A program made the translations under genes and the position numbers. Positions 10,219-60,319 of a stretch of 64,000 nt of DNA are shown here, one piece after another. Below the pieces are notes generated by a model. It had not been told where the DNA came from. It was given only the letters and a program-made list of their open reading frames with translations, and did no database searches. How positions within the stretch are numbered: the stretch's first letter is position 1; every line of letters starts with the position of its first letter. This DNA comes from Candidatus Omnitrophota bacterium. Lineage in GTDB: Bacteria > Omnitrophota > Gorgyraeia > Gygaellales > Profunditerraquicolaceae. The stretch lies in NCBI GenBank assembly GCA_030650425.1, contig JAUSED010000008.1:68554-132553 (forward strand), read 5' to 3'.

Positions 10219-10235
10219 AATTATTGAGGAGACTT

Positions 10236-11305: not shown

Positions 11306-12271
11306 ATGAAAGAAGACCGGTTATTTGATCGTAAAGCATTAAAATTAGAATCCTTATCCCAAAGGAAGAGTGATTTGAATGTTTCCATAATCGCGCCGCT
11401 GGATTTTAACTTAAACTTTAAATCAAACGGTGACTTGAAAGAAATTAGTAAGCGGATAATCAGGGCCAAAAAGAAGAAAGCCTCCGTCATCTGGATGATA
11501 GGCGGGCACGTTATCAGGTCAGGGGTACAGCGATATATCATAGATTTGATGGAGAGAGGATATATTTCCTGTTTGGCGATGAACGGAGCCGGGATAATTC
11601 ATGATTATGAATTATCTCTTATTGGGGCAACTACCGAGAGCGTGGCTCAATATATCAAAGAAGGGCAGTTCGGTTTATGGAAAGAAACAGGAGAAATCAA
11701 TAATATAATCAATAGAAGCTACAAGCAGGGACTTGGTTTGGGCGAGGGAGTTGGTAAAGCTATTTACGAAGGCGATTTTCCTTATAAAGAGTTTAGCCTG
11801 TTGGCAGCAGGTTATCGTTTGAAGATTCCGGTAACGGTGCACGTCGGCATAGGTTATGATATTATCCATGAGCATCCTAATTGCGATGGCGCGGCAACGG
11901 GCGCTACTTCTTACCGCGATTTTCTAATCTTTACCAAATTAGTCAGCAATCTGGAAAGGGGAGTAATCATGAATTTCGGGAGCGCAGTAATGGCCCCGGA
12001 GGTATTCTTGAAGGCCTTGAGCATGGCAAGGAACGCTCTCCGCCGGAAGAAGAAGCAAATCAGGCATTTTACTTCAGTTGTCTGCGACCTTTATAATTTA
12101 CCGGCTAAATTTAACAAAGAACCGGATAAGCGCAATCCGGGTTATTATTTCAGGCCGTGGAAGACAATGCTCGTCAGGACAGTAGCTGACGGAGGAAGCT
12201 CTTTTTACGTCAAAGGCTGCCACGCGGATATTCTCCCTGCGCTTTGGAAAGAGATTAATGAAAATTCTTGA
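11306..12271 (+). CDS. deoxyhypusine-synthase-like (DHS-fold) protein of unknown function
   Basis: Segment VIWMIGGHVIRSGVQRYIIDLMERGYISCLAMNGAGIIHDYE matches the DHS core block [41 protein letters not shown]. 321 aa. Confidence 0.4.
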   Translation: MKEDRLFDRKALKLESLSQRKSDLNVSIIAPLDFNLNFKSNGDLKEISKRIIRAKKKKASVIWMIGGHVIRSGVQRYIIDLMERGYISCLAMNGAGIIHDYELSLIGATTESVAQYIKEGQFGLWKETGEINNIINRSYKQGLGLGEGVGKAIYEGDFPYKEFSLLAAGYRLKIPVTVHVGIGYDIIHEHPNCDGAATGATSYRDFLIFTKLVSNLERGVIMNFGSAVMAPEVFLKALSMARNALRRKKKQIRHFTSVVCDLYNLPAKFNKEPDKRNPGYYFRPWKTMLVRTVADGGSSFYVKGCHADILPALWKEINENS

Positions 12272-12734
12272 AATCGACAGTTTGGCAAAGACAATTAAAG
12301 GCCTGAAGGCTTCCGGAAAAAAGGTTGTCCTCTGTCACGGCTGTTTTGACCTTATGCACCCCGGACATATTAAATATTTTCAAGCCGCTAAAAAAATGGG
12401 GGATATTCTTGTTGTAACGGTTACCCCTGATATTTATATTGATAAAGGGCCGGGGAGGCCGGTATTTAACCAGCAATTACGGGTTGAATCAATCGCCGCC
12501 CTTGAATGCGTTGATTATGTAGCGCTAAATCAGTGGTCCACGGCAGAAGAAACCTTGAGGTTATTAAGGCCTGATATATATGTTAAAGGGCAGGAATTCG
12601 AAGGGCTTCAAGATAAGACTGGGAAACTCCAGAAAGAATTAAAAGTTATTCAGGAAGTCGGAGCCGAAATAAGGTTTACTCATGAGGTGGTATTTTCTTC
12701 AACCAGATTAATTAATAATAACCTTAAAAAATAA
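12258..12734 (+). CDS. cytidylyltransferase-like nucleotidyltransferase (HldE/RfaE domain II-like; heptose-1-phosphate adenylyltransferase family)
   Basis: VVLCHGCFDLMHPGHIKYF; 158 aa stand-alone domain. Confidence 0.7.
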   Translation: MKILEIDSLAKTIKGLKASGKKVVLCHGCFDLMHPGHIKYFQAAKKMGDILVVTVTPDIYIDKGPGRPVFNQQLRVESIAALECVDYVALNQWSTAEETLRLLRPDIYVKGQEFEGLQDKTGKLQKELKVIQEVGAEIRFTHEVVFSSTRLINNNLKK

Positions 12735-12735
12735 A

Positions 12736-14268
12736 ATGAAAAACACGCCCAAAAGTAAAATATTATTGCTTGATGATTTAATTAATAAAGTAAAGAGCCT
12801 TAAGGCTTCCGGAAAAGTTGTAGTCCAGAGCCACGGAATCTTTGACTTAATCCATCCCGGAGTGATCGAACATCTTAAATCAGCTAAGGAACGAGGAGAT
12901 GTGTTGATAGCTACCGTTATCACGGATAAAGATGTGCGTAAGGGTCCGGGTAGGCCGATCTTCTCCGGAAATTTAAGGGCAGAAAATGTAGCGAGCCTTT
13001 CTATGGTTGATTATGTTTGCGTGGTAGGTGATGAAACACCTTTTGAATGCGTAAAAAGAATAAAACCGAATATTTTTGCCAAAGGAAAATCAATAAAAGA
13101 TCTTGATAATGAAATTAACAATAAGATATTTGAAGAAGTAAAGGAGCTTTATTTCGGAAAGGTAAGGATCCATGAAACCGGTGGCTTCTCTTTAAGCTCT
13201 TCGGAAATAATCAATAATTTTATTGATATCTATCCTGAAGAGGTAAAAAGCTTTCTGAAAGACTTCTCCAGGAAATACAGTTTTAAGGAGATAAGCAGAA
13301 AGATAAACAGCTTAAATAAATTAAAGATACTTCTTGTTGGTGACGGCATAATAGATGAGTATCATTATTGCGAGGCTATGGGTAGGTCAGCTAAGGCTCC
13401 GCTGGTGGTAAATAAATATATAACCCATGAGATATTTGCCGGAGGCGCTTTTGCCATTGCGAACCATTTGGCGGGATTATCAGGAAACATTCATTTAGTC
13501 TCTTTACTGGGAAACGAACCAGCCAGGGAGGATTTTATTCGCTCCAACTTGAAACCGAATGTAACTACGAAGTTTTTTTACCGTAAAGACGGCTCTACAA
13601 TAGTAAAAAAGAGGTACATAAACCAGTATCAGAACCAAAAACTTTTTGAAGTTAATTACCTAAGCGACTCTTATATTAATGGTGGTTTGGAATCAGGGAT
13701 AATTAAATACTTGAATAGCGTGGCAGCGTCTTATGATTTAATCTTGATTTCCGATTTTGGCCATGGTTTTATTACGAATCGGATAATCGAAGCAATTCAG
13801 GATTCTAAGGTTAAGTTTGCGGTGAATACCCAGACAAATGCCGCTAATGCCGGCTTTAACATGATTACCAAGTATCGTAAGCCGTTTTATGTTTGCTTGG
13901 ATGAACCGGAATTAAGATGGGCAGCGCAAGAGAGATTCGCCGATATTGAATCTGTAGCTAAGAAAATCCTGGAAACCGTCCATGCCTCTAACCTTGTTGT
14001 AACCTTGGGTAAAAGAGGCTCATTTGGGATAAATAATAGAGGCCAGATAAATTATACTCCTATTTTTTCTTCAAAAGTTATAGATACTGTAGGTGCTGGC
14101 GACGCTTTTTTTGCTTTTACCGCGCCTTGTGTTGCTCAGAAGATGCCTCTGGATTTAGTTTCTTTTATCGGAAATGCCGTAGGGGCCTTAGCAGTTCAGA
14201 TCGTTTGTAACAAAAGACCAATTGAAAAATATGAACTCCTTGAGTTTATCCACGCGCTAATGAAGTAG
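12736..14268 (+). CDS. bifunctional nucleotidyltransferase (N-terminal) / PfkB-family sugar kinase (C-terminal); HldE-like with reversed domain order
   Basis: N-terminal VVVQSHGIFDLIHPGVIEHL (paralogue of the upstream gene). C-terminal DTVGAGDAFFAFTA ribokinase/PfkB motif. 510 aa. Confidence 0.7.
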   Translation: MKNTPKSKILLLDDLINKVKSLKASGKVVVQSHGIFDLIHPGVIEHLKSAKERGDVLIATVITDKDVRKGPGRPIFSGNLRAENVASLSMVDYVCVVGDETPFECVKRIKPNIFAKGKSIKDLDNEINNKIFEEVKELYFGKVRIHETGGFSLSSSEIINNFIDIYPEEVKSFLKDFSRKYSFKEISRKINSLNKLKILLVGDGIIDEYHYCEAMGRSAKAPLVVNKYITHEIFAGGAFAIANHLAGLSGNIHLVSLLGNEPAREDFIRSNLKPNVTTKFFYRKDGSTIVKKRYINQYQNQKLFEVNYLSDSYINGGLESGIIKYLNSVAASYDLILISDFGHGFITNRIIEAIQDSKVKFAVNTQTNAANAGFNMITKYRKPFYVCLDEPELRWAAQERFADIESVAKKILETVHASNLVVTLGKRGSFGINNRGQINYTPIFSSKVIDTVGAGDAFFAFTAPCVAQKMPLDLVSFIGNAVGALAVQIVCNKRPIEKYELLEFIHALMK

Positions 14269-14271
14269 GAT

Positions 14272-14850
14272 TTGGATATGAAAAAAGATATAGGAAAATA
14301 CCATAAACGTTTTTTAAAGCTGATCGATTCTATTATAGCCACGGATTGCCGTAATAAAGATATCGATTTTCTTTTCGGCATTGAGATCGCCTGCAATTTA
14401 ATTAAAAAACAATCAAAAAAAAACAGTAAGATCTTTTTTGTCGGAAATGGCGGAAGCGCTGCTATTGCAAATCACGCTGCGATTGATTTTATGAAAAATT
14501 TGGGATTAAGGGCACATTCTTTCAGCGATAGTTCGCTATTAACCTGCATTAGTAATGATTTTGGATACGAATATGTTTTTGCTAAACCAATTGAGTTTTT
14601 TTCTGACAAAGAGGATGTACTAGTTACTATTAGTAGCTCTGGTAAGTCTAAAAATATACTAAAAGCAGTCGAGATTGCGGAGTCAAAAGGCGTTGATATC
14701 ATTACTTTATCAGGGTTTGATTTGAATAATCCCTTGCGCTCAAAGGGCGTTTGTAATTTTTATGTTCCCTCTAAAGAATACGGCCTTGTAGAAGTGGCGC
14801 ATCAATACATTTGTCACTATATCGCGGATATTCTAATGAAGCATAAATAA
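14272..14850 (+). CDS. gmhA: SIS-domain sedoheptulose-7-phosphate isomerase (GmhA-like)
   Basis: IFFVGNGGSAAIANHAAIDF...VLVTISSSGKSKNIL; 192 aa. Confidence 0.75.
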   Translation: MDMKKDIGKYHKRFLKLIDSIIATDCRNKDIDFLFGIEIACNLIKKQSKKNSKIFFVGNGGSAAIANHAAIDFMKNLGLRAHSFSDSSLLTCISNDFGYEYVFAKPIEFFSDKEDVLVTISSSGKSKNILKAVEIAESKGVDIITLSGFDLNNPLRSKGVCNFYVPSKEYGLVEVAHQYICHYIADILMKHK

Positions 14851-14852
14851 AA

Positions 14853-15920
14853 ATGGATAAATTCAAAATAGATAGCCATAAATTAATGTACCACGTGGAT
14901 CGTCTTTCAGATTGGCATGCCGGAAAGAATATCTATCCTATCTACATTGAAGTAGGTCCTTCGGGAGCCTGCAATCACCGTTGCGTGTATTGCGCGCTTG
15001 ACTTTATGGAGTATCAGCCACGCTTCCTTAAAACCGAGATCTTTTTGGAGCGCTTATCCGAATTCGGCGTTAAAGGCGTTCGAAGCATGATGTTCGCTGG
15101 CGAAGGCGAGCCATTCTTGCACAAAGATATAGCCGAGATCGCTGTACATACGAAAAAGGCTGGTATAGATGTCGCATTCACTACGAATGGGACTCTAATG
15201 AAAAGGGATATTGCTGAAAAGATCCTGGGGGTGACGGAATGGATCAAGATCAGCATTAATGGTGCAACAGCCGGTACATATGCCAAAATTCATCGGACAA
15301 CAGAGAATGATTTTCATCGTTTAATCAATAATTTGAAAGAGGCAGTCAATCTCCGGCGCAAGAACAATTATAGTTGTACCATCGGCATGCAGCTTCTATT
15401 GTTACCGGATAATTACCACGAGGCCGTCTCTTTGGCGCGCCTGGCTAGAGATATCGGATTGGATTATTTGGTGATCAAGCCGTATTCTCAGCATCCGCAG
15501 AGTAAAACTAATATTTATAGCAATATTAAATATAGCGATTATTTTTTCCTGCAGGATGAGTTACTTAAAGAGAATACGGCGGATTTTCAGGTTATTTTTC
15601 GTATAAATACAATGAAGAAATGGGACAATGGCCAGAAACCTTATAATCGCTGTATTGCCCAGCCGTTTTGGTCGCATATCGACGCGGGCGGAAATGTATG
15701 GGGTTGCAGCGCGTTCTTGAATGTCGAACGGTTCTTGTATGGCAACATCTATGAACAGACTTTTCAGGAGATTTGGGAGGGTAAAAAACGTTTGGAATCG
15801 CTGCATTGGGTTGAAGGGTACATGGATGCTACCGGTTGCCGTCTGAACTGTAGAATGGATGAGGTGAACCGGTACTTATGGGAATTAAAGATCCCACCAG
15901 AGCATGTGAATTTTATTTGA
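14853..15920 (+). CDS. radical SAM protein (with C-terminal Cys-rich SPASM/twitch-like region)
   Basis: CNHRCVYC (CxxxCxxC); later Cys cluster WGCSAF...GCRLNC. 355 aa. Confidence 0.7.
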   Translation: MDKFKIDSHKLMYHVDRLSDWHAGKNIYPIYIEVGPSGACNHRCVYCALDFMEYQPRFLKTEIFLERLSEFGVKGVRSMMFAGEGEPFLHKDIAEIAVHTKKAGIDVAFTTNGTLMKRDIAEKILGVTEWIKISINGATAGTYAKIHRTTENDFHRLINNLKEAVNLRRKNNYSCTIGMQLLLLPDNYHEAVSLARLARDIGLDYLVIKPYSQHPQSKTNIYSNIKYSDYFFLQDELLKENTADFQVIFRINTMKKWDNGQKPYNRCIAQPFWSHIDAGGNVWGCSAFLNVERFLYGNIYEQTFQEIWEGKKRLESLHWVEGYMDATGCRLNCRMDEVNRYLWELKIPPEHVNFI

Positions 15921-15944: not shown

Positions 15945-16787
15945 ATGCCGTTATCGATAGAAGAATTGGAAGTTAAAGCTCGCAAAGTTCGTCAAGAGAT
16001 TTTTAAGATGATCTGTGGCGCAGGCGGCGGGCATATCCCGGCTTGTTTATCCATCGTCGAAATTTTAGTTACGCTTTACAACGGTGTGCTTAGGGTTAAT
16101 CCTGGCGGGCCTCGCGATCCCGGTCGTGATCGATTCATTTTGAGTAAAGGGCACGGCGGTGTCGCGCTTTATGCCATATTGGCGGATAAAGGATTTCTTG
16201 ACCCTCGGCTTTTGTTAACCCATGGAAAGAAAGGAACTATTCTCGGTGGGCATCCGGATATGCATAAGGTCTCGGGGATCGAGGCTTCCACAGGAGCTCT
16301 CGGGCACGGGCTCCCTTTTGGCGCCGGTGTTGCGTTGGCAGCGAAAATAGACGCTAAAGATTATCGCGTATTTGTTCTTGTAGGAGACGGGGAATGCCAG
16401 GAGGGGAGTATTTGGGAAGCCGCGCTTTTTGCGCCTCAAATGAGACTCGATAATCTTACAGTAATTGTGGATCACAACAAGCTGCAAGCTATGGGCAGTT
16501 TAGACGATATTATCGGGTTATCTCCCTTTGCAGATAAATGGAAGGTTTTTGGTTGGGCAGTGGAAGAGGTTGATGGCAATAATATCAGTGATCTCCGCAA
16601 TACTTTTGGCCGGCTTCCTCTGAAGCCTGGCCGGCCAACTTGTATTGTCGCGCATACGCTCAAAGGAAAGGGAATTTCGTTTATGGAGAATGCGCCGATT
16701 TGGCACTATCGGATGCCAAATCCCGAAGAGATGAAGATGGCATGTGCAGAACTAGGATTGGCATTTGAAGATGGAGTTATCGAATGA
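15945..16787 (+). CDS. transketolase, N-terminal (TPP-binding) subunit
   Basis: Split transketolase N half: GHGG...LVGDGECQEGSIWEA. AAGGA RBS 6 nt upstream of ATG 15945. Confidence 0.8.
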   Translation: MPLSIEELEVKARKVRQEIFKMICGAGGGHIPACLSIVEILVTLYNGVLRVNPGGPRDPGRDRFILSKGHGGVALYAILADKGFLDPRLLLTHGKKGTILGGHPDMHKVSGIEASTGALGHGLPFGAGVALAAKIDAKDYRVFVLVGDGECQEGSIWEAALFAPQMRLDNLTVIVDHNKLQAMGSLDDIIGLSPFADKWKVFGWAVEEVDGNNISDLRNTFGRLPLKPGRPTCIVAHTLKGKGISFMENAPIWHYRMPNPEEMKMACAELGLAFEDGVIE

Positions 16788-17704
16788 GGAATGCTTACTT
16801 ATCGGCGTTATATGATTTAGCGAAAGAGAATAAAAATATAATGGCGTTGATTTCTGATAACGGCGCGATTGTTTATGATCAATATCGTGCGGATTTTCCT
16901 GAACAGTATCTTAACTGCGGGATTTCTGAAGCAAATATGGTCGGGGTTTCCGCCGGATTAGCGTCGTGCGGTAAGATCCCTTTTGCGTATACGATCGCGA
17001 ACTTTATAGTGTATCGCGCGTTTGAGCAGATCCGTAATGACGTCTGTCTTCAAAAAATGAATGTTAAATTAGTCGGAATTGGCGTTGGTTTTGTGTATAG
17101 CATTTTGGGGCCTACGCACCATACAACGGAAGATATCGCGTTGATGCGGGCGCTGCCGAATATGACTATTTTCTCTCCGTGTGACCCGCGAGAGGCGAAA
17201 AAGGTTACTTATGCCGCTGCTCAAATCAATGGCCCGGTTTATATCCGCCTGGCAACCGGCGGGACTCCGAAGGTTTATGAAAAAGATTATGATTTTCAGG
17301 TCGGCAGAGGCGTTGTCTTAAGAGAAGGCCGTGACCTAACAATGATTTCGACCGGTAGTATTTTGCTGGAGGCCTTGCAAGCGGCTGACCAGCTAAAGGC
17401 AGAGGGCGTAGGTGTACGGTTTATCAATATGCATACATTAAAGCCAATGGATCAGGCGATTATTCTAAAAGCCGCACGGGAGACAAGCCGTATTCTGATC
17501 GTTGAAGATCAAAATTTACAGGGAGGATTAGGTTCGGCGGTTGCCGAAACTTTGGCTGATAATGCAGTCGTCTGTAGATTCAAACGTTTAGGCTTACAAG
17601 ATGTTTTTACGGAAGGCTATGGTTCGTACCAGGATTTAAAGGAAATTAACGGGATCGCGAAGAAAAATATTAAGGATGCCGCTAAAGGCCTGTTGGAGGC
17701 GTAA
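16784..17704 (+). CDS. transketolase, C-terminal (pyrimidine-binding/transketolase C) subunit
   Basis: Split transketolase C half. ATGA overlap with the N subunit. Confidence 0.8.
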   Translation: MRNAYLSALYDLAKENKNIMALISDNGAIVYDQYRADFPEQYLNCGISEANMVGVSAGLASCGKIPFAYTIANFIVYRAFEQIRNDVCLQKMNVKLVGIGVGFVYSILGPTHHTTEDIALMRALPNMTIFSPCDPREAKKVTYAAAQINGPVYIRLATGGTPKVYEKDYDFQVGRGVVLREGRDLTMISTGSILLEALQAADQLKAEGVGVRFINMHTLKPMDQAIILKAARETSRILIVEDQNLQGGLGSAVAETLADNAVVCRFKRLGLQDVFTEGYGSYQDLKEINGIAKKNIKDAAKGLLEA

Positions 17705-17705: not shown

Positions 17706-18371
17706 ATGGGACAATTATTGAATATTATCACTCCGCTGCATACAAGAACTAAACGTAATTATCTGGAACGTATGCAGAATGAAAAAGTATATTGTTCAGA
17801 AGTCGCCCGAAAATATGGAAAAGATTTCTGGGATGGCGACCGGCAGTTTGGTTATGGAGGATATAAATATGACGGCCGCTGGTCAGTTGCCGTGGAGGCG
17901 TTAGCCAGGCAGTATGGATTAAAGACGGATGCCCGTATTTTGGATGTCGGCTGCGGCAAAGGGTTTATGCTCTATGAGTTTAAAAATATTTTAAAGGATT
18001 GTACCGTCAAAGGTTTTGATATCTCCCATTATGCCGTTAAAAACGGCAAAGAGGAAATCAAGGAAGATTTATTCTGCCATAAAGCGGAAGCGGCGCCGTA
18101 TCCTTTTAAAGATAAAGAATTTGATTTGGTTATCTCCACGGGTACATTGCATAATTTGCGGGTTTATGATTTAAAGCAGGCGCTTCAGGAAATTGAGCGC
18201 GTTGGAAAGAATAAGTATATTTTGGTTGAAGCCTTCCGTAACATAGAGGAGCTTTTTAATCTTCAATGCTGGGCGTTGACCTGCGAACTGTTTTTCCGTC
18301 CCGAGGAGTGGGTCTGGTTATTCCAGGAATTCGGCTATACCGGAGATTATGAATTTATCTACTTTGAATAA
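17706..18371 (+). CDS. class I SAM-dependent methyltransferase
   Basis: ILDVGCGKGFMLYEF (motif I GxGxG); LVISTGTLHNL. ATG 17706 used, not the overlapping upstream extension. Confidence 0.7.
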   Translation: MGQLLNIITPLHTRTKRNYLERMQNEKVYCSEVARKYGKDFWDGDRQFGYGGYKYDGRWSVAVEALARQYGLKTDARILDVGCGKGFMLYEFKNILKDCTVKGFDISHYAVKNGKEEIKEDLFCHKAEAAPYPFKDKEFDLVISTGTLHNLRVYDLKQALQEIERVGKNKYILVEAFRNIEELFNLQCWALTCELFFRPEEWVWLFQEFGYTGDYEFIYFE

Positions 18372-18380: not shown

Positions 18381-19463
18381 ATGAAGAAAGAAGCCAGCCT
18401 TTTATATACTAAAATGAAGATTTTCCATTTTAAGGATAAAATCGATTCTTTGACTCGGAATAATCCTTTGATTATGCCTCCCTTGCATATTCGGATAAAG
18501 CCGACGAATGCCTGTAATCATAATTGTACTTATTGCGCTTATCGGGTGGATAACCTGCAACTTGGTAAAAACATGGAGACAAGAGATTCTATTCCGAAAG
18601 AAAAGATGCTCGAGATAATCGAAGATTTAAGGGAGATAAAAGTTAAAGCTGTTACTTTTAGCGGCGGAGGCGAGCCTTTTTGCTATCCCTATCTGTTTGA
18701 CGCGGTATTAAAGCTTATTAAATCAAAGATTTCCTTTGCTTCGCTAACTAACGGTTCTCTGCTCTCGGGAGATATTGCCGAACTCTTCAGCCGTTACGCT
18801 ACTTGGGTAAGGATTTCTATTGACGGCTGGGATGATAAGAGTTATTCCATCTACCGCCGGGTGCGCGAGGGCGAATTCAGTAAAGTTATACATAATATCA
18901 AGTGTTTTAAAAAAAATAGAGGAAGATGTTATTTAGGGGTGAGTATTGTTGTTAATAAGCATAACGCTCCCCATATATATGACCTTGTGATGCTTTTACG
19001 CGATAGCGGCACTGATAGCGTGAAGATATCGCCTTGTATTATCAGTAACAGTGGAAAAAGCAATAATGCTTATCATAGCAGTCTTTATAAAACAGTTAAA
19101 GGCCAAATTGCTAAGGCATATAGTAGGTGCGCTAAAAAAGGATTCGAGATTTTTGATTCATATCATACCCAACTGGAAAGTTTTGCCAAGTCTTACCATT
19201 GGTGTCCTTATTTACAGATTCTTCCGGTGATAGGAGCTGATTTAAATATCTATCCATGCCAAGATAAAGCATATAATCTTGATGAGGGATTGGTTGGTTC
19301 GATAAAAAAGGAAAGATTCAAGGATTTTTGGTTTTCAAATAAAAACAAGTTTTTTAAGGTAAATCCTGCAAAGGTTTGCAATCATCACTGCGTTGCAAAT
19401 GAGAAAAATAAGATGATTCTGGAATATTTAAATACGGACGCTAAGCATTTATTTTTCGTTTAG
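18381..19463 (+). CDS. radical SAM protein with C-terminal Cys-rich (SPASM-like) region; paralogue of 14853-15920
   Basis: CNHNCTYC; C-terminal CPYLQ...CQDKAYN...CNHHC. Confidence 0.7.
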   Translation: MKKEASLLYTKMKIFHFKDKIDSLTRNNPLIMPPLHIRIKPTNACNHNCTYCAYRVDNLQLGKNMETRDSIPKEKMLEIIEDLREIKVKAVTFSGGGEPFCYPYLFDAVLKLIKSKISFASLTNGSLLSGDIAELFSRYATWVRISIDGWDDKSYSIYRRVREGEFSKVIHNIKCFKKNRGRCYLGVSIVVNKHNAPHIYDLVMLLRDSGTDSVKISPCIISNSGKSNNAYHSSLYKTVKGQIAKAYSRCAKKGFEIFDSYHTQLESFAKSYHWCPYLQILPVIGADLNIYPCQDKAYNLDEGLVGSIKKERFKDFWFSNKNKFFKVNPAKVCNHHCVANEKNKMILEYLNTDAKHLFFV

Positions 19464-19492
19464 GGCTCTAAATCTATGGAGAACGGGGTTCA

Positions 19493-20371
19493 GTGAGGAA
19501 GGTTATTCTGCTTGGGCATACTGGTTTTGTCGGGTCTCATTTATATAAGTCACTGGTCCAAACTTTACCTGAAGTGCCGCTTGTAGGATCTTCATTCCCG
19601 GAGCTTGACCTGACGCGATCCGAAAGCGTTGGTATATTAAAGGCGTTATTCGATCGGCATACAGTGGTTATCCTTTGTTCAGGCATTAAGCGGCAGTTTG
19701 GCGATAGCCCGGATATCTTTGAAAAAAATGTTGCGATGTGTTTGAATGTTGTCCGGGCGTTAGAGGTATCGCCGGTTGCCAGGATGGTCTTTTTTAGTTC
19801 TATGGCTGTTTATGGGGAAGACATCCATAATATTGGCATTGATGAGAATACGCCCATATGTCCACGATCTTACTACGGCCTTGCGAAATATGTAGGGGAA
19901 CTTGTTTTCGAACGTATCTTCAGCCGTCAGAATGGTTCTTACGTGGCTATACGCCTGCCGGTTATTTATGGTCCTGGGGATGGAGGCAATACCTATGGCC
20001 CGGCCGGGTTCTTGAAAGCTGCGATGGAGGGCCGGGTAGTCACGCTATGGGGCGATGGGGAGGAGCTAAGGGAGTTTATATTTATTGATGATGTTGTCGA
20101 AATTGTTAAACGCCTCTTGACGGTTGAGTATCAAGGTGTTGTGAATGTTACTGCCGGTAAAAGTTACTCGTTTAGGGACATTTTGAATATTCTTGATCGA
20201 CTTTTGCCGCAAGGCGTTCAAGTGGCATCGCGGGCTCGTTCCAAGGATAAGGTGGATAATGCCAGCTGTAACGCCAAAATTCAGCAGTGGACGGGTGGGT
20301 TTGTTTTTACGGCTCTTGAGGATGGTATTCGAAAAATGTTTGAAGTCGAAAAGTCGCGTGTTAAACCGTAG
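19493..20371 (+). CDS. NAD-dependent epimerase/dehydratase family protein (possible NDP-sugar 4-reductase or heptose 6-epimerase-like)
   Basis: VILLGHTGFVGSHL; YGLAKYVGE; GTG start. Confidence 0.55.
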   Translation: MRKVILLGHTGFVGSHLYKSLVQTLPEVPLVGSSFPELDLTRSESVGILKALFDRHTVVILCSGIKRQFGDSPDIFEKNVAMCLNVVRALEVSPVARMVFFSSMAVYGEDIHNIGIDENTPICPRSYYGLAKYVGELVFERIFSRQNGSYVAIRLPVIYGPGDGGNTYGPAGFLKAAMEGRVVTLWGDGEELREFIFIDDVVEIVKRLLTVEYQGVVNVTAGKSYSFRDILNILDRLLPQGVQVASRARSKDKVDNASCNAKIQQWTGGFVFTALEDGIRKMFEVEKSRVKP

Positions 20372-20385
20372 CAGGCAGGTCTTCT

Positions 20386-21582
20386 ATGTTGCTTTGCAGG
20401 GCATGTTATTCCGAGAGCGTTTTCCCAATGCTTGATGTTGGATTGCAACCGTTGAGTAATCGGTTTGTTTGTATAAAAGGCGAAGAGGAGCCGCTTTTTC
20501 CTTTTAAGTGGAATTTATGCCGGCGTTGCGGGCTCGTTCAGTTTGATACTTCTGTGCCGGCTGATGAACTTAAGCCGCGTTTCAATTGGATCACCTACAG
20601 CGAACCCGAAGACCATTTAGATGATATGGTGGATATGCTTGAGGAATTACCTGGAATGACAACAAATTCGCTTCTTATGGGTGTGAGCTATAAAGATGAT
20701 ACAACGCTTCGCCGTTTTGAGAAGAAAGGCGTAACGCGCACAATTCGTATTGATCAAGCGGCTGACCTCGGCATTACGGATAGGTGCGCTGGAATAGAGA
20801 CACTGCAGAATCGTATTATTCCAGAGCGAATGCTCGAGGTTTCCGCTAAATATGGGCGGGTTAATATGGTTATTGTCCGCCAGGTGCTTGAGCATGCGGA
20901 GGATCTAAGGGCTTTTTTAAATGGTCTCAAAGAATTAATTGCGCCCGGCGGTTATGTTGTTATTGAGGTCCCTGATTCTTTACGCGCGATTGAACGTTGT
21001 GACTATACGATGCTTTGGGAGGAGCATGTTGTATATTTTACCCCATCAACCTTTCGCCGTTGCCTTAATGAGGCGGGATTCAATGTGGTGAATTTTATCG
21101 TTTATCCGTATACCTTTGAGGACTCTTTGGTTTGTGTTGCCCAGATCGGAAAACATGGCGGGGTGCAGCAAAAGGAAGAGGTGAAAAAGGCTTTGTTAGA
21201 TGCGGAACATTTCGCGAAAGAATTCAAGGGTTATGGTATTAAATTCAAAAATGCGCTGGAAGCATTTTATCGGGAAAAGGGTAAAATTGCCATATTTGGA
21301 GCCGGACACCAGGCCTGCGGCTACGTTAATTTTTTTGGCCTCACGGATCTGATCGACTTTGTGGTAGATGACAATCCTAATAAAAAGGAGCTTTTTATGC
21401 CGGGTTCGCAATTACCGATTCTGAGTTCCCGGGCTTTGTTGGAACGGGATATTAAACTATGCCTGTTGACGATTAATCCCATTCGCGAAGAGAACGTATT
21501 ATTACGTAATTGCGCTTTTGTTGGTCAGGGGGGCCAGTTTAGGTCCATTTTTTTGTCCAGCCGTCACGCATTTAAGTGCTAA
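20386..21582 (+). CDS. NDP-hexose C-methyltransferase family protein (TylC3/NovU-like: Zn-ribbon + class I MT + C-MT C-terminal domain)
   Basis: N-terminal CRAC...CRRC zinc ribbon; MT core VIEVPD; C-terminal Rossmann-like region (IFGAGHQA). 398 aa. Confidence 0.55.
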   Translation: MLLCRACYSESVFPMLDVGLQPLSNRFVCIKGEEEPLFPFKWNLCRRCGLVQFDTSVPADELKPRFNWITYSEPEDHLDDMVDMLEELPGMTTNSLLMGVSYKDDTTLRRFEKKGVTRTIRIDQAADLGITDRCAGIETLQNRIIPERMLEVSAKYGRVNMVIVRQVLEHAEDLRAFLNGLKELIAPGGYVVIEVPDSLRAIERCDYTMLWEEHVVYFTPSTFRRCLNEAGFNVVNFIVYPYTFEDSLVCVAQIGKHGGVQQKEEVKKALLDAEHFAKEFKGYGIKFKNALEAFYREKGKIAIFGAGHQACGYVNFFGLTDLIDFVVDDNPNKKELFMPGSQLPILSSRALLERDIKLCLLTINPIREENVLLRNCAFVGQGGQFRSIFLSSRHAFKC

Positions 21583-21591
21583 GGAGGTTTG

Positions 21592-22101
21592 ATGGTTTAT
21601 AAAAAGATAAATGACGAAGTTTTGTATTCTGATGAGCAGATCGTTACGGTGAGCGCCTCTGACCTTGCGTTTTTGAAAGAAGCCGCTACGCACAATGTGC
21701 GTAAACGAATTCGTTTATGCACCCATACCGGGGTAAATGATAAAGTCCATGAAATGTTCATTGTCCATATGAAGGGCGCCTATGTTCGTCCGCATAAAAT
21801 TTTAGGTAAGAGTGAGTCATTCCAGGTTCTTGAGGGCGAGGTTGACGTTATTTTGTATGCCGATGATGGCCGCCTGACGCGGGTTATTAAGATGGGGGAT
21901 ATGGCTTCTGATAAGGCGTTTTATTATAGGCTTCCCGAGTCGGTCTTCCATACGCTTCGCGTCCGTTCCGAGGTGGTTTGTTTTAAGGAGGTCACGCTTG
22001 GCCCATTTATCTCTAATGGTACGATTTTTGCGCCGTGGTCGCCAGACCAGAATGATCTTTCTGGTGTGGCGAAGTTCTTAGAGAAGCTTAACGAGGCATA
22101 G
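21592..22101 (+). CDS. cupin-fold protein (possibly WbuC family)
   Basis: Small beta-rich protein with His-containing motifs (HTGVNDKVHEMFIVHMKG) between two C-methyltransferase genes. AGGAGG RBS. Confidence 0.35.
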   Translation: MVYKKINDEVLYSDEQIVTVSASDLAFLKEAATHNVRKRIRLCTHTGVNDKVHEMFIVHMKGAYVRPHKILGKSESFQVLEGEVDVILYADDGRLTRVIKMGDMASDKAFYYRLPESVFHTLRVRSEVVCFKEVTLGPFISNGTIFAPWSPDQNDLSGVAKFLEKLNEA

Positions 22102-22147
22102 ACTTTTAAAAGACTAGGGGAAACAGAGTAAATAAAAAGGAAAAAAG

Positions 22148-23398
22148 ATGAAAAAAGAATATTATAAAAGATCTACCTGCCGTCTATGTGATTCAACAAG
22201 GGTTTACTCCGGAGTAAAATTTGAGGCGACTCCGCCCGGCGATACTTTTGTAACACAAGCGGAGATTAACCGGGCACAAAAGAGATATCCTATTGATGTT
22301 TGTCTCTGCGAGGATTGCGGCAGTATTCAGCTTTTAGATGTGGTAAACCCAGAGATTCTTTATGGCCCTTATCTTTATCAGACATCCATCTCTCTGGGGT
22401 TGCCTGAGCATTTTCGCAGGTATGCAGATGAGGTTTTGGCTGCGGTAGCCATTAAGCCGGGCAGCCTGGTTATTGATATCGGCAGTAATGACGGGACCCT
22501 TTTGCGGTGTTTTCAGGAAAGAGGTATGAAGGTATTGGGGATAGATCCCGCGTCGGCGGCGGTTAAGACTGCCCTTGCAAGAGGGGTTGATACGATTCAG
22601 GCGTTCTTTGACCGAAACCTGGCCAGGAAAATACGCAGCGAGCGGGGAGATGTCGGGATCGTAGCTGCTAATAATGTGATTGCTAATGTTGATGCGCTGG
22701 GGGATTTCGTAGACGGCATCAGAGAACTTATTGAGCCTAACGGATATTTTGTGATGGAAACCGGCTGCGGGGCGTCCCTTCTTGAGAAACGATTAATTGA
22801 TGTGGTCTATCACGAGCACCTTTCTTATTTTACAGTAAAACCTTTGGAGGGTTTCTTTCGTCGGCATGGGATGAAGATTATTGATGCGTATTGGATTCCC
22901 TCTAAAGGGGGTTCGATTCGTTGTTTTGTTCAAGCGGATAAATCTTCGGCCATTCCGAAGCCGTCGGTTAGGGAGATGATTTATATGGAAGAAGATAAAG
23001 GCATTGGCACTATGGATTCGCTCCGCAAGATGGGCGTGTTTATCACGGAAAGAAAAAAAGGGTTAACATCTCTTCTTGATGGTCTTCGGGCGCAGGGAAA
23101 GACGATCGTTGGTTACGGCGCTTCTGTTGGCGTGACCACGCTCTTGTACCTCTTTGGTTTGGATAAGTACCTGGATTATCTGGTTGATGATGATGCAACG
23201 CGATTTGAGCGTTTTTCTCCCGGGCAGCATATCCCGGTGTATTCGTCGGTTGTCCTTAATGAAAAAAACCCCGATTATGTCCTTATTTTAGCGTGGCGCT
23301 ATACAGACCCGATTATGAAACGCCACGAAAAATATATCCAGCAGGGAGGAAGGTTTATTTCACTTTTGCCCGAGTTAAAGATTTTCGGTGTTTCTTAA
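22148..23398 (+). CDS. NDP-hexose C-methyltransferase family protein (TylC3-like), second paralogue
   Basis: CRLC...CEDC zinc ribbon; VIDIGSNDGTLL motif I; same architecture as 20386-21582. Confidence 0.55.
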   Translation: MKKEYYKRSTCRLCDSTRVYSGVKFEATPPGDTFVTQAEINRAQKRYPIDVCLCEDCGSIQLLDVVNPEILYGPYLYQTSISLGLPEHFRRYADEVLAAVAIKPGSLVIDIGSNDGTLLRCFQERGMKVLGIDPASAAVKTALARGVDTIQAFFDRNLARKIRSERGDVGIVAANNVIANVDALGDFVDGIRELIEPNGYFVMETGCGASLLEKRLIDVVYHEHLSYFTVKPLEGFFRRHGMKIIDAYWIPSKGGSIRCFVQADKSSAIPKPSVREMIYMEEDKGIGTMDSLRKMGVFITERKKGLTSLLDGLRAQGKTIVGYGASVGVTTLLYLFGLDKYLDYLVDDDATRFERFSPGQHIPVYSSVVLNEKNPDYVLILAWRYTDPIMKRHEKYIQQGGRFISLLPELKIFGVS

Positions 23399-52021: not shown

Positions 52022-53872
52022 ATGAAAAGAGTTGTAATAGCAAAGAATATTGACAAAAATACATTAAAGATGATTAGGGATCATCTTCCCGGGGGTAACG
52101 ATGAAAGGATCTATCTGGTATTTGGTAATCCAGATATTCATAACCTACATTCTTTAGAGGCATTGGGCTTTAAAGAGCAGTGCTTGCCTGCGCATGATGA
52201 ACAATACCGGGATAACTTTTTACGTGAATATATTGATCTTATAGGCAGCATAGGCAAAGAAAATAATATTCTTGAGTGGTGGGCAACGGATATAGCTTCT
52301 AAAAATCGTTTTACTTCCAGGATAACGGAGTTGTTATCTCATTTTTTAGACATTGTACAGACAGCCAAGGATAAGCCATTCGGGATTATGGTAGTGGTAA
52401 ATCCGGATTGGGCAATCGTTTCTTCTCTAAAGAAAGCCTGCCTAAAAGATGGCATTGGTTTTATTGCAGGTAATGGTTTTGCAGTGGAAAAAATTTTCAG
52501 TTTTACAGCTTTAAGGTTAAGAAGCCTGGCCTCTGTTATACGTAATTTTGGGAAGATAGGCATTAGATCTATCTATTGCCGTTTTATACTAGGGAAGAAG
52601 ACGCAATCCTCTGTGAAGGATAGCGGGCCATATTATGTGGTTAAGACATTCATCTACAACAGTTCTTTTTCCGAAGGGCATGATTATAAAGATAGCTTTT
52701 TCGGAAAACTACCGTATATATTAAGCAAAAACAGAAAAGTGCTCATTTTTGCTTCCGTACTCGGAAGCTATCGTTACTGTCTGCAAGAGATAAAAAAATG
52801 TAATTCGTTTAGGATTATTCCCGTAGAATATTTTATTACCTTTTTGGATTTAATTTCAGCTTTCAAGGCATTTATCTTGTCTAGGGTGGTTATAAGCGAT
52901 AAATATATGCTTAGCTGTGAAGTAGCGGGTATAATACGAAATGAGTTGGAGCGGACATGGAATGGAATACAGTATTACCAACTGTTCCATTACTGGGCTT
53001 TAAAGCGGCTGCTAAGCGGGGTAAGGGTGGATACCTTTCTTTTGACTTATGAGAATAATCCGTGGGAGAAGATGTGCATAGCCGCGTTAAGGCAGATATC
53101 GCCGGACACTTTTATCATAGGCTATCAACATACAATTGTTTCTCAGGCTTCGGCGAATATGTTCCCCAGCCGTTATGAAAATGGCATTATGCCTTTTCCT
53201 GATAAGATAGTGACGGTTGGCGAGGCCACTAAGAATATTATGCAGCGATACGGGAATTTTGGGGATGTTTCAATCCGCGCTTCATGCGGCCTCAGGTTTG
53301 AGTATCTTTTCGATCTAGGCCGGCTTGAGAGGAAAAATAATGGGAATATTCTGCTTGCGCTTGAAGGCATAAAAGATGCGCATAAACTAGTGGCTTATGT
53401 TCTCAGAGAGCTGGGAGGAAAAAGTAAGTACAACGTTAGAATCAGGACTCATCCCGCGCTTCCCTGGCAATATTTTCAGAGTAGGTGTAGATTTGACCTG
53501 GCGAAATACTCCAATTTTCATCTTTCGCCTGGAGGATTAGTAAGGGCCGACATGGAGTGGGCAGATACAGTTATATACTGGGGAAGCACTATCGCTGTTG
53601 AAGCGCTTAACCTTGGCAGGCCCGTAGTTCACTATAACACAGGCTCTATCTTAAATTATGACCCTTTATTTGAATCCTCCGATTTTAAATGGGTAGTAAA
53701 CGAAAATGTCAGTTTGACCGTTATCCTTGAAAAGATAAATAGTCTGGATGATCAGGAGTTTACTTCTGGCTGGAAAAAGGCAAAAACATATTTGGACGAC
53801 TATTTCCATCCGATCACCGAAGAAAATATGAAAGAATTTATAAAAGATGCCTCGTCAATTGGGGCAAAGTGA
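52022..53872 (+). CDS. large hypothetical protein with GT-B-like C-terminal block (second candidate transferase)
   Basis: ADMEWADTVIYWGSTIAVEALNLGRPVVHYNTG, a GT-B-type block. ATG 52022 chosen after the upstream stop. Confidence 0.35.
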   Translation: MKRVVIAKNIDKNTLKMIRDHLPGGNDERIYLVFGNPDIHNLHSLEALGFKEQCLPAHDEQYRDNFLREYIDLIGSIGKENNILEWWATDIASKNRFTSRITELLSHFLDIVQTAKDKPFGIMVVVNPDWAIVSSLKKACLKDGIGFIAGNGFAVEKIFSFTALRLRSLASVIRNFGKIGIRSIYCRFILGKKTQSSVKDSGPYYVVKTFIYNSSFSEGHDYKDSFFGKLPYILSKNRKVLIFASVLGSYRYCLQEIKKCNSFRIIPVEYFITFLDLISAFKAFILSRVVISDKYMLSCEVAGIIRNELERTWNGIQYYQLFHYWALKRLLSGVRVDTFLLTYENNPWEKMCIAALRQISPDTFIIGYQHTIVSQASANMFPSRYENGIMPFPDKIVTVGEATKNIMQRYGNFGDVSIRASCGLRFEYLFDLGRLERKNNGNILLALEGIKDAHKLVAYVLRELGGKSKYNVRIRTHPALPWQYFQSRCRFDLAKYSNFHLSPGGLVRADMEWADTVIYWGSTIAVEALNLGRPVVHYNTGSILNYDPLFESSDFKWVVNENVSLTVILEKINSLDDQEFTSGWKKAKTYLDDYFHPITEENMKEFIKDASSIGAK

Positions 53873-53879
53873 GAATAGG

Positions 53880-54962
53880 ATGCGAGAGAACAAAAAAATA
53901 TTAAAGGCTGGTATAATCGGTTACGGTTATATGGGTAAAATTCGTAAAAAGATTATTGAGTCTTCGGCGGTCCTTAAACTCGAGGGAATATGCGATATAA
54001 ATAGAGAGTTGATTACCGTTGATCAGTCTGTTAAATGCAAGATCTATGATTCTTATAAGAAACTAATCGCGTCGGATATCGACATTGTTTTTGTCTGTAC
54101 GCCTAATTCATTTTCCCCTCAGATCGTGGTTGACAGCTTGCGGGCTGGCAAACATGTTTTCTGTGAGAAACCTCCCGGAAGGACGCTTGCGGATGTAAAA
54201 CTGATCATAGAGCAGGAGAAAAAGCGCCCGGAACTTAAACTGATGTTTGGTTTTAACCATAGATATCATCCGGGAATACTCGAGGCCAGGACTATCGTTG
54301 ACAGCAAGAGATTTGGTAAAATCTTATTTTTAAAAGGGACATACGGAAAATCGGGAGGCAGGAACTATCTTCAGTCTTGGCGTAACCAAAAAGAGGTAGC
54401 AGGGGGAGGCATACTCCTTGATCAGGGAATACATATGCTTGATTTGTTTCGTTATTTCTGTGGTAATTTCAGTGAGGTAAAATGCTTTCTTTCGAAGATG
54501 TTCTGGGATACTGATGTCGAAGATAACGCCTTTATTTTTCTCCGCAACAGGTTTGGGCAGGTCGCTACCCTCCATTCTTCAGCTACATTGTGGAAACACT
54601 GTTTCAGGATAGAGATATTTCTTGAGGATGCTTACCTTATAGTATCTGGTCTTTTGTCCAAAACAGGAAGCTACGGCAGGGAAACTCTCACTATCGGCCG
54701 GAGGCAATTTGAAGACGAAACTTTCGCTTTGGGCAATCCGCGGGAAGAGGTGGTGTATTTTGACCAGGATTTATCTTGGGAGGCAGAAGTAACCAAGTTT
54801 ATCGACTATATTACCAATGATAATAAGGTGGATAATAGCTCTTCTTATGACGCGCTAAAGGTAATGGAGATAATAGAACGGGCGTATAAGAACAATTCAG
54901 TCAAAGGTTGCCCTAATCTGGCGGGAAAAGGAGATCGATTCCATGAAAAACGTAGTAATTAA
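53880..54962 (+). CDS. Gfo/Idh/MocA-family NAD(P)-dependent oxidoreductase
   Basis: KAGIIGYGYMGK; HVFCEKPP. Confidence 0.8.
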   Translation: MRENKKILKAGIIGYGYMGKIRKKIIESSAVLKLEGICDINRELITVDQSVKCKIYDSYKKLIASDIDIVFVCTPNSFSPQIVVDSLRAGKHVFCEKPPGRTLADVKLIIEQEKKRPELKLMFGFNHRYHPGILEARTIVDSKRFGKILFLKGTYGKSGGRNYLQSWRNQKEVAGGGILLDQGIHMLDLFRYFCGNFSEVKCFLSKMFWDTDVEDNAFIFLRNRFGQVATLHSSATLWKHCFRIEIFLEDAYLIVSGLLSKTGSYGRETLTIGRRQFEDETFALGNPREEVVYFDQDLSWEAEVTKFIDYITNDNKVDNSSSYDALKVMEIIERAYKNNSVKGCPNLAGKGDRFHEKRSN

Positions 54963-55971: not shown

Positions 55972-55981
55972 GAGGAGAAAT

Positions 55982-56584
55982 ATGGCATACGTCGAGCAGT
56001 ATCTAAAAGAGGTAACGGAAATAGCGCAGGGCATAAACGTAGTTGATATTGAAAAAATAATAAAAGTATTACTGCAAGTAAAACAAGATAATGGCCGTAT
56101 TTTCTTTTTGGGAGTGGGCGGCAGCGCAGGGAACGCATCGCATGCGGTAAACGATTTCAGGAAACTTGCTGGATTTGAGGCGTATTCGCCTGTTGACAAT
56201 GTATCTGAGCTTATGGCTAGGACAAATGACGAGGGTTGGGATACGGTTTTTTCGGAATGGCTAAAAGGTAGCCGTTTGCGTAAAGAGGATGCGGTTTTTG
56301 TTTTTTCAGTCGGGGGCGGTAACGCTGAAAAAAACATAAGCAAAAATCTGGTGACGGCGCTTGAATATGCCAAATCGGTCAAAGCAAAAATTTTAGGTAT
56401 CATAGGCAGGGATGGCGGATTTACTGCTCAGGTCGCGGACGCCTGTGTTATAGTTCCTACGGTCAATTCCAACACGGTTACTCCTCACTCCGAGGCTTTC
56501 CAGGGTGTGATATGGCATCTGATAGTATCAGACTCCAGGCTTAGAGTTGTTGAGAACAAATGGGAGTCCTTTAACAAAAAATAA
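55982..56584 (+). CDS. SIS-domain sugar-phosphate isomerase (second GmhA-like copy)
   Basis: IFFLGVGGSAGNASHAVNDF...VFVFSVGGGN. Confidence 0.7.
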   Translation: MAYVEQYLKEVTEIAQGINVVDIEKIIKVLLQVKQDNGRIFFLGVGGSAGNASHAVNDFRKLAGFEAYSPVDNVSELMARTNDEGWDTVFSEWLKGSRLRKEDAVFVFSVGGGNAEKNISKNLVTALEYAKSVKAKILGIIGRDGGFTAQVADACVIVPTVNSNTVTPHSEAFQGVIWHLIVSDSRLRVVENKWESFNKK

Positions 56585-56596
56585 GGAGTTGAATAA

Positions 56597-57283: not shown

Positions 57284-57297
57284 AAAAGGGGATTAAG

Positions 57298-58086: not shown

Positions 58087-58089
58087 AAA

Positions 58090-58743: not shown

Positions 58744-58753
58744 GAGGTACGAA

Positions 58754-59533: not shown

Positions 59534-59540
59534 TTTACTT

Positions 59541-60305: not shown

Positions 60306-60319
60306 TTAAAGAGGAGAAT

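Follow-up and report, generated by a model that had tools for sequence, protein, structure and literature searches.

A split transketolase with a rebuilt substrate pocket in surface-glycan loci of Omnitrophota and distant phyla: a possible sugar-tailoring carboligase

The stretch of DNA analysed here (the window) comprises 64,000 nt from a Candidatus Omnitrophota bacterium (assembly GCA_030650425.1, contig JAUSED010000008.1, positions 68,554 to 132,553), and our subject is a transketolase (TK) whose domains are divided between two of its genes, TK-N and TK-C, at 15945–17704. The pair is surrounded by a 60-kb glycan locus located on one strand; all the sizeable open reading frames (ORFs) of the window are on the + strand, and the GC skew is positive across its whole length. 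Pfam and NCBIfam matches identify dTDP-rhamnose-type (RmlA/B/D) and GDP-fucose-type (Gmd/Fcl) genes within the locus, together with PseB (above the equivalog cut-off), NeuB, two CMP-sugar synthetases, two TylC3-type C-methyltransferases, a WbuC cupin, two TIGR04372 glycosyltransferases and an ABC exporter. It also contains seven radical S-adenosylmethionine (SAM) genes, three of them B12-dependent. A first-pass annotation, made from the sequence alone, had described N and C subunits of a split TK among genes for nucleoside diphosphate (NDP) sugars. Both the pair and its setting are borne out. The genes discussed below are listed in Table 1.

The TK-N ORF runs from 15939 or 15945 (282 or 280 amino acids), while TK-C has 306 amino acids. 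The start at 15945, as given in the first-pass annotation, is the likely one, since AGGA is located 5 nt upstream and an identical database protein (named transketolase by NCBI) has 280 amino acids. The start codon of TK-C overlaps the stop codon of TK-N by 4 nt (ATGA), pointing to translational coupling. Matches to PF00456, PF02779 and PF02780 are all above the Pfam cut-offs, and the GDG motif, N185 and E411 are present, so that the pair belongs to the transketolase superfamily. It has the organization of a split-gene TK, with the PP domain that binds thiamine diphosphate (ThDP) on one gene, and the Pyr and TKC domains on the adjacent, overlapping one. Among solved structures the closest is that of the split TK from Carboxydothermus hydrogenoformans, with 244 bits for TK-N against chain A of 6YAK and 248 bits for TK-C against 6YAJ, followed by human TKT. 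The best NCBIfam TK model (NF004559, with a full-length cut-off of 488) gives 259 bits for TK-N and 242.8 bits for TK-C, a borderline sum, and the remaining TK models score far below their cut-offs. The pair does not have the properties of a DXP synthase (DXS): it comprises two chains rather than a single one of ~620 amino acids, and the matches to TIGR00204 (37.6 bits for TK-N and 176 bits for TK-C, cut-off 466) are lower than those to TK.

Both subunits were aligned with TktA of Escherichia coli, with the C. hydrogenoformans and human enzymes, and with 40 split TKs of other genomes; residues are given in E. coli numbering, and loci carry L numbers. TK-N keeps the equivalents of H26, H66, H100, G114, L116, D155 (in the GDG motif), E160, D183, N185 and H261, and TK-C keeps R358, the cofactor-activating E411 and H473. 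All five catalytic histidines (H26, H66, H100, H261 and H473) are thus retained in the enzyme of the window, and they are retained in every member of its family. In canonical TKs the phosphate group of the substrate is held by R358, S385, H461 and R520, and the C2 hydroxyl is bound by D469. R358 is the only one of these five residues that is kept. In TK-C H461 is replaced by G, D469 by L, L382 by N and R520 by T (T, G or V across the family), and the loop DL(S/A)xS that contains S385 is replaced by DNGA, one residue shorter and lacking serine. The pocket changes of TK-C are found in 13 of the 13 non-identical C subunits of the family. Near the active site TK-N has its own family-specific changes, R91G, Q98G, I189A and G262Y; counted over both subunits, the altered pattern is shared by 13–14 non-identical family members. 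The canonical split TKs in the alignment, from C. hydrogenoformans and from L020, L022, L024, L026, L028, L032 and L034, keep H461, D469 and R520. They also keep the S385 loop, save that serine 385 is alanine in two of them.

This pattern, in which the cofactor-binding and catalytic residues are kept and the phosphate ligands are replaced, indicates on the evidence of the alignment that the ThDP chemistry is intact and that the distal sugar-phosphate pocket has gone. Changes at S385, D469 and R520 switch the acceptor range of E. coli TK, and the engineered use of pyruvate as donor by that enzyme needed H100L, or H473N in other variants (PMC10787763). H100 and H473, which hold the hydroxyl group of a ketol donor, are both present here, which favours a hydroxylated C2 donor.

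Further split TKs, with 37–44% identity to TK-C, were seen in L019, L021, L023, L025, L027, L030 and L031, in Bacillota, Verrucomicrobiota and Rickettsiales metagenome-assembled genomes (MAGs) and in Selenomonas ruminantium. These have Gly, Ala or Asn at the position of H461, and Leu at that of D469 in all but one; the pair of L023 is located between Gmd- and RmlB-like genes. The altered residues suggest that the phenomenon is perhaps broader than the present clade. From their sequences, non-canonical split TKs may be widespread, all uniformly annotated 'transketolase'.

Loci related to that of the window were gathered by look-ups of TK-N homologues (64–78% identity), by a scan with TK-C taking one genome per species, and by two look-ups from the GSU2086-family neighbour described below. 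They were annotated against the proteins of the window, with L050 and L051 partly matched by Pfam domain only. Some 17 distinct related loci were found, in at least four bacterial phyla and on one contig labelled as archaeal. Their hosts are Omnitrophota, Planctomycetota MAGs, Margulisiibacteriota and Candidatus Magnetominusculus (Nitrospirota), together with a contig bearing a protein that NCBI labels Methanoperedens; the complete Omnitrophota genomes CP070797.1 and CP070780.1 are among the carriers. In every one of the ~17 loci TK-N and TK-C lie side by side among sugar-tailoring genes, and a pentose-phosphate or other housekeeping context was found in none of those examined. The earlier suggestion that the split TK is pathway-specific therefore holds.

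In the module that the loci have in common, an oxidoreductase gene precedes TK-N and TK-C, and genes for a methyltransferase and a radical SAM enzyme generally come next. The position directly upstream of TK-N is occupied in two ways. In nine loci (L002, L005, L009, L010, L013, L014, L015, L050 and L051) it is taken by an extended short-chain dehydrogenase/reductase (SDR) of the NDP-sugar type; these SDRs are GalE/LegB/RmlB/HldD-like, all below the cut-offs. In the window the same position is taken by a radical SAM/SPASM enzyme, the nearest solved relatives of which are the sugar-nucleotide radical SAM enzymes BlsE (7vob) and DesII (8hzv). Its orthologues (55–78% identity) are found at the same position in L001, L011, L012 and L017, making five loci with the window. 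In 14 loci, then, TK-N directly follows either an SDR or a DesII/BlsE-like radical SAM enzyme, the context of a sugar-branching split TK. The occurrence of an SDR in nine loci and a radical SAM enzyme in five at one position is read as two ways to a single oxidation, and the alternation appears to be a non-orthologous displacement of that one oxidising step. The radical SAM/SPASM enzyme of the window is a candidate for the enzyme that makes the carbonyl group of the acceptor.

In most loci the TK genes are flanked by the oxidoreductase and the methyltransferase, and in L003, L048 and L049 they come directly after a radical SAM enzyme. The methyltransferase gene of the window probably starts with the ATG at 17707, which is preceded by GGAGG. 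Orthologues (61–70% identity) follow TK-C in 13 related loci, 14 with the window; these include L011, where the gene comes after an inserted B12-radical SAM gene, and L016, where it is on the opposite strand. The radical SAM gene that follows the methyltransferase has orthologues (57–67% identity) in nine related loci, and a Radical_SAM gene of matching size is present at this position in L050 and L051 (Pfam match only). The order of the subsequent tailoring genes recurs in L011, while L001, L012 and L017 have part of it.

The TK module is usually located beside either an HldE/GmhA-like activation block or a GT9-like gene. Besides a fused nucleotidyltransferase/PfkB kinase, the activation block comprises a GSU2086-family protein and a small nucleotidyltransferase (or an SDR in place of both), and in most cases it also has a GmhA-like SIS isomerase. 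The GSU2086-family protein has 57–68% identity to its counterparts in L002, L005, L009, L016, L048 and L049. Its AlphaFold2 model has a pLDDT of 78, and Foldseek relates it only to the LOR/SDH protein 3c2q, to deoxyhypusine synthases and to the C-domain of ArgZ with TM scores of ~0.5. Across bacteria and archaea the protein is 65–85% identical and always lies beside HldE-like and GmhA-like genes; in Geobacter the GSU2086 gene is located between hldE and gmhA (GSU2085–2087) (PMC5585712). The stand-alone nucleotidyltransferase scores 109.8 bits with rfaE_dom_II (cut-off 181.5). HldE models match the fused protein far below their cut-offs, with 124 bits for rfaE_dom_I (cut-off 345) and a block range of 85–110 bits for rfaE_dom_II (cut-off 181.5). 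The fused gene is found in ten related loci by sequence identity (65–66% in L048 and L049), and in L050 by domain match. The SIS isomerase scores 100 bits with the gmhA model (cut-off 209), and has orthologues (47–57% identity) in L002, L009, L012–L014, L048 and L049; in L050 its place is taken by an SIS_2 gene. Judged by the equivalog cut-offs and the order of domains, the isomerase and the fused protein are relatives of GmhA and HldE and not their orthologues. The activation block of L048 and L049 has a transaldolase of its own and a GmhB-like HAD phosphatase as its first genes.

An alternative front end is formed by a pair of genes encoding a radical SAM enzyme of ~300 amino acids and a GT9-like (heptosyltransferase-family) protein. 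The pair is 74–80% identical among L001, L003, L011 and L051, and is absent from the window. In these four loci the TK module is present without the isomerase/kinase/transferase block. In the loci of Margulisiibacteriota and Magnetominusculus the kinase/transferase is present with no SIS gene nearby. One of the former, L005, also contains three types of ThDP carboligase in a single sugar cluster (12875–14945 and 19216–20843): the TK pair, an E1 alpha/beta pair and a YerE-like enzyme.

Table 1. Position of the genes discussed. Coordinates are those of the window except where a related locus is named.
Feature	Coordinates	Strand	Evidence
GSU2086-family protein, first gene of activation block	11306..12271	+	NF052581, 395.6 bits (cut-off 250)
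Stand-alone nucleotidyltransferase, RfaE domain II-like	12258..12734	+	CTP_transf_like 1.3e-16
Fused nucleotidyltransferase and PfkB sugar kinase, HldE domains reversed	12736..14268	+	CTP_transf_like and PfkB
SIS_2 ketose-phosphate isomerase, GmhA-like	14272..14850	+	SIS_2 4.7e-14
Radical SAM/SPASM enzyme directly upstream of TK-N	14853..15920	+	Pfam Radical_SAM and SPASM
TK-N, ThDP (PP-domain) subunit	15945..16787	+	Pfam Transketolase_N 5.5e-35
TK-C, Pyr and TKC domain subunit	16784..17704	+	Transket_pyr 1e-31, Transketolase_C 3e-27
Class I SAM methyltransferase, next gene after TK-C	17707..18371	+	Pfam Methyltransf_31/11/25
Second radical SAM enzyme of the TK module	18381..19463	+	Pfam Radical_SAM and Fer4_12
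Tailoring continuation: SDR, C-methyltransferase, WbuC cupin, C-methyltransferase	19493..23398	+	Pfam and NCBIfam
Ten-gene transaldolase cassette	53847..62013	+	Pfam/NCBIfam matches, conserved order
Transaldolase	56597..57283	+	TAL_FSA 2.9e-35
Radical SAM and GT9-like pair (other loci)	L001 56–1003; L003 4051–5878; L011 6273–8101; L051 6067–7997		

Taken with the residue pattern, this neighbourhood suggests that the pair encodes the alpha and beta chains of a ThDP-dependent enzyme of the TK family that has been recruited as a sugar-tailoring carboligase, transferring a C2 unit onto a keto sugar, and is not an enzyme of the pentose-phosphate pathway; we place the probability of this at about one half. 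The activation block would make a nucleotide-linked heptose or a close relative of one. The enzyme encoded upstream of TK-N (here the DesII/BlsE-like radical SAM enzyme, and elsewhere the extended SDR) would oxidise one hydroxyl group of the sugar to a carbonyl group. TK would then take a C2 unit, as dihydroxyethyl-ThDP, from a hydroxylated ketol donor such as hydroxypyruvate or a ketose and add it to that carbonyl, generating a sugar with a hydroxyacetyl branch or a chain longer by two carbons. Before assembly of the surface glycan, the sugar bearing the C2 unit could be modified further by the methyltransferase and the second radical SAM enzyme. The loci in which the module occurs behind the radical SAM and GT9-like pair, lacking enzymes of sugar phosphates, argue that TK acts after the sugar has been activated. 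In its most specific form, which we advance tentatively, the enzyme could be the first of TK type to act on a nucleotide-activated sugar. Addition of the C2 unit to an oxidised ADP-heptose-like intermediate would lead to an undescribed branched or nine-carbon sugar that is methylated, remodelled by radical SAM chemistry and displayed on the surface in uncultivated phyla and some archaea.

Several points weigh against the proposal of a carboligase acting on keto sugars. R358, a phosphate ligand in canonical enzymes, is retained, so that a phosphorylated substrate is possible. The argument from the pocket is drawn from sequence alignment, and gene order alone cannot distinguish an NDP-sugar from a sugar phosphate as the substrate. 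The sugar itself is a prediction for hosts that are all uncultivated. Family membership, the residue pattern and the synteny are what the analysis shows, whereas the level at which the acceptor is used, the source of the C2 unit and the site of its addition are inferred. A recent review describes the function of the split TKs of the miharamycin and amipurimycin type as still pending (PMC12247030).

In a rival reading the C2 unit is added at the level of sugar phosphates to a non-canonical acceptor. This could be a hexose-6-phosphate or heptose-7-phosphate, giving an octulose or nonulose phosphate, or else an aldose that is deoxygenated or methylated, and the product would then be activated by the SIS isomerase, kinase and nucleotidyltransferase. 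The route to the octose of lincomycin (LmbR/N/P/K/O) has the same logic. TKs yield ketoses, and the operon also has genes for a ketose-phosphate isomerase, an anomeric kinase and a nucleotidyltransferase; the widened pocket (H461G, D469L and I189A) with R358 kept could fit a longer phosphorylated chain. The arginine and the logic of the operon together leave a longer or unusual aldose phosphate as a real alternative. We nevertheless regard it as unlikely, given that four loci have the TK module without the isomerase/kinase/transferase block, that the Margulisiibacteriota and Magnetominusculus loci lack a nearby SIS gene, and that the dedicated supplier of ketose phosphate, where there is one, is a transaldolase. 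A plainer role would be the dedicated supply of precursor, in which an ordinary TK reaction (such as fructose-6-phosphate plus glyceraldehyde-3-phosphate giving erythrose-4-phosphate and xylulose-5-phosphate, or xylulose-5-phosphate plus ribose-5-phosphate giving sedoheptulose-7-phosphate and glyceraldehyde-3-phosphate) would feed sedoheptulose-7-phosphate to the GmhA-like isomerase and the HldE-like kinase/transferase. In the window and in nine related loci the TK adjoins GmhA-like and HldE-like genes; it keeps R358 and all the catalytic residues, and has summed NCBIfam scores (259 + 243 bits) close to the cut-off of 488 of one TK model. In L048 and L049, moreover, a transaldolase in the same operon could together with TK convert fructose-6-phosphate to sedoheptulose-7-phosphate. 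Yet, of the four residues that bind phosphate in canonical TKs, three (H461, R520 and S385) are replaced throughout the family, as is D469, the modules of L001, L003, L011 and L051 have no isomerase, kinase or transferase to be supplied, and gene order puts TK among tailoring enzymes. Since the activation block of L048 and L049 includes its own transaldolase and GmhB-like phosphatase, the supply of ketose phosphate there needs no TK, and this is the sole type of locus with a dedicated supplier. The loss of the phosphate pocket, the modules free of sugar-phosphate enzymes and the use of transaldolase by that one type of locus make plain supply of sedoheptulose-7-phosphate unlikely. The first-pass annotation had left open a dedicated pool of sedoheptulose-7-phosphate and a branched or higher-carbon sugar made by two- or three-carbon transfer. 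With cofactor chemistry kept and the canonical phosphate residues and D469 lost, the branched or higher-carbon sugar made by two-carbon transfer fits better than the dedicated pool.

Chemistry like that of DXS or of the E1 component of alpha-keto acid dehydrogenases would differ from the carboligase proposal in its donor: pyruvate would be decarboxylated and an acetyl or hydroxyethyl unit passed to the keto sugar, as by YerE or by E1 pairs of the AviB1/B2 type. TK-C does score 176 bits with the DXS model, both chains have weaker matches to E1, and the true E1 alpha/beta pair and YerE-like enzyme of L005 indicate that this chemistry operates in that locus. The strongest matches are nevertheless to TK throughout, and H100 and H473 are kept, whereas the use of pyruvate by E. 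coli TK needed one or other of them to be changed (H100L or H473N; PMC10787763). The presence in L005 of an E1 pair distinct from the TK pair also suggests a different role for the latter, and we consider pyruvate-dependent transfer distinctly improbable. Split TKs do serve the pentose-phosphate pathway in some anaerobes and archaea (PMC7661550), and the cassette of CP070797.1 is flanked on one side by RuvABC, MetK, PFK and FBA. A housekeeping TK that lies in a glycan locus by chance is very unlikely all the same, because the same neighbours recur in ~17 loci of distant phyla, substrate-binding residues are lost family-wide, and the gene is an accessory one in Planctomycetota and other hosts with large genomes; the contig of L009 has a second TK-like pair.

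The closest functional parallel to a carboligase of this kind is found in antibiotic biosynthesis. Split-gene TKs are proposed to transfer a hydroxyacetyl unit to a keto sugar as part of the pathways that make miharamycin (Mih) and amipurimycin (Amc) (2025 review, PMC12247030). The review lists 13 further split TK candidates, all from Streptomycetes (Krug et al. 2024), and none of them has been characterised in vitro (PMC12247030). These resemble the present family, as compared by description, in being two-gene TKs in a sugar-biosynthetic cluster beside an oxidoreductase predicted to form a keto sugar. They differ in belonging to actinomycete nucleoside-antibiotic clusters and in acting on a nucleoside-linked high-carbon sugar, whereas the present clade belongs to cell-surface glycan loci of mostly anaerobic, uncultivated lineages, keeps company with radical SAM enzymes and with HldE/GmhA-like or GT9-like genes, and has a clear residue signature. 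By analogy, the clade would follow the known though unproven Mih/Amc logic in a new biological setting. This review was the useful source; our literature search gave nothing else relevant that ties transketolase to nucleotide sugars or heptose, to O-antigen or to Leptospira rfb, and nothing usable on Omnitrophota and the pentose-phosphate pathway.

Enzymes of the YerE type, and of the AviB1/B2 (alpha-keto acid dehydrogenase E1) type, use ThDP to carry an acyl anion equivalent and add it to the ketone group of a deoxy-keto sugar linked to a nucleotide, for sugars of O-antigens and antibiotics (PMC12247030). The functional logic is the same, and both types co-occur with the TK family in L005, but they belong to the decarboxylase-type and E1-type superfamilies and take pyruvate or a longer 2-oxo acid as donor, whereas the present enzyme is of TK type with the histidines that hold the C1 hydroxyl of a ketol donor. 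The split TK of C. hydrogenoformans, which has been characterised biochemically (PMC7661550), shares the division into PP and Pyr/TKC chains and the cofactor and catalytic residues. It has H461, D469, R520 and the loop DLSKS and is active as a TK, whereas the enzyme of the window has G, L, T and a shortened loop. A pathway-specific split TK with non-canonical substrates is exemplified by the 6-deoxy-6-sulfofructose transketolase SqwGH, though this is a catabolic enzyme, not linked to nucleotide sugars, that uses free sulfo-sugars with glyceraldehyde-3-phosphate as acceptor (PMC11659671). The activation block recalls the ADP-heptose pathway (GmhA, HldE, GmhB and HldD) in its GmhA-like isomerase and HldE-like domains; it differs in its scores below equivalog cut-offs, the reversed order of HldE domains, the additional stand-alone nucleotidyltransferase and the GSU2086-family protein. 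The order of reactions in the lincomycin octose route matches the block of L048 and L049, with its transaldolase and GmhB-like phosphatase.

The first-pass annotation had grouped the TK pair with an Fsa/TalC-type transaldolase and two SIS isomerases as a joint set of carbon-shuffling enzymes. Both isomerases are real (14272–14850 and 55982–56584; SIS_2 of the GmhA type, both below the equivalog cut-offs), and so is the short transaldolase. The grouping itself is not supported, however, because the second isomerase and the transaldolase (55982–57283) are part of a separate cassette, located 38 kb away. In order, its ten genes encode a GFO oxidoreductase, a methyltransferase, the SIS_2 isomerase, the transaldolase, an HpcH/HpaI pyruvate aldolase, a HAD phosphatase, two SDRs, a KdsB-type cytidylyltransferase (at 60320, above the subfamily cut-off) and a 2-hydroxyacid dehydrogenase (at 61090). 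The same order is repeated in L044/L045, L046 and L047, of Chloroflexota, Thermodesulfobacteriota and Margulisiibacteriota, without any TK. As it is conserved on its own in three phyla, the cassette is independent of the TK module, and the idea of a single carbon-shuffling unit of TK, transaldolase and both SIS genes was dropped. For the same reason the 2-hydroxyacid dehydrogenase was dropped as a source of hydroxypyruvate for TK.

The transaldolase scores 145 bits with the fsa_talC_mipB model (cut-off 246), and its homologues are 72–91% identical across phyla. A Schiff-base lysine with E, N, S and F is the signature of a transaldolase (TalB), and Q, L, A and Y that of a fructose-6-phosphate aldolase (FsaA). 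In FsaA numbering the protein has K85 with E59, N107, S129 and F131, where E. coli FsaA has Q59, L107, A129 and Y131. The Fsa/TalC-type label thus stands as to a short transaldolase, and falls as to fructose-6-phosphate aldolase. The cassette is probably a route to a CMP-activated 3-deoxy-ulosonic acid that is independent of KdsA and NeuB; no literature was found on a transaldolase/HpcH/KdsB cassette.

Other parts of the glycan locus have features of their own. The B12-binding radical SAM enzymes are encoded at 34546–36156, 38392–39771 and 45352–47031, and with the four other radical SAM genes the load of radical chemistry is exceptionally high for a sugar cluster. A nonulosonic acid pathway of pseudaminic-acid type is distributed over 10224–11267, 32377–34521 and 39771–43083, with PseB (above the equivalog cut-off), a fusion of an RmlD-like reductase with a DegT aminotransferase (714 amino acids), a GNAT protein, a CMP-transferase, an Epimerase_2-like protein and NeuB. 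It is followed by ATP-grasp, PIG-L deacetylase, second GNAT and AsnB genes, which suggests a heavily decorated derivative. A homologue of the papain-family (C1) cysteine peptidases at 6825–7559 is an unusual neighbour of sugar genes; a protein with 67% identity is encoded in another Omnitrophota MAG (L011, 4474–5205), beside an HTH_24 regulator and PseB. Two large overlapping ORFs of 675 and 663 amino acids (49981–53872) have no Pfam match, and could be glycosyltransferases or Maf-like proteins.

Formation of C–C bonds on sugars by ThDP enzymes is known for the YerE and E1 types, and for TK has only been proposed, for two Streptomyces antibiotics. The present clade of TKs is well defined, with a clear active-site signature and a fixed neighbourhood, and is abundant in metagenomes and present in several phyla. 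The signature provides a sequence rule that separates the clade from TKs of the pentose-phosphate pathway; databases now give all of them the one label 'transketolase'. In lineages with small genomes, such as Omnitrophota, the gene could be miscounted as evidence for that pathway in metabolic reconstructions. The clade is a tractable set of enzymes for tests of the reaction in vitro, and a natural TK that takes ketones or bulky acceptors would, if the reading is true, be of interest in biocatalysis. For the organisms themselves, it is a sign that the surface glycans of uncultivated microbes may hold unknown sugars, branched or of higher carbon number.

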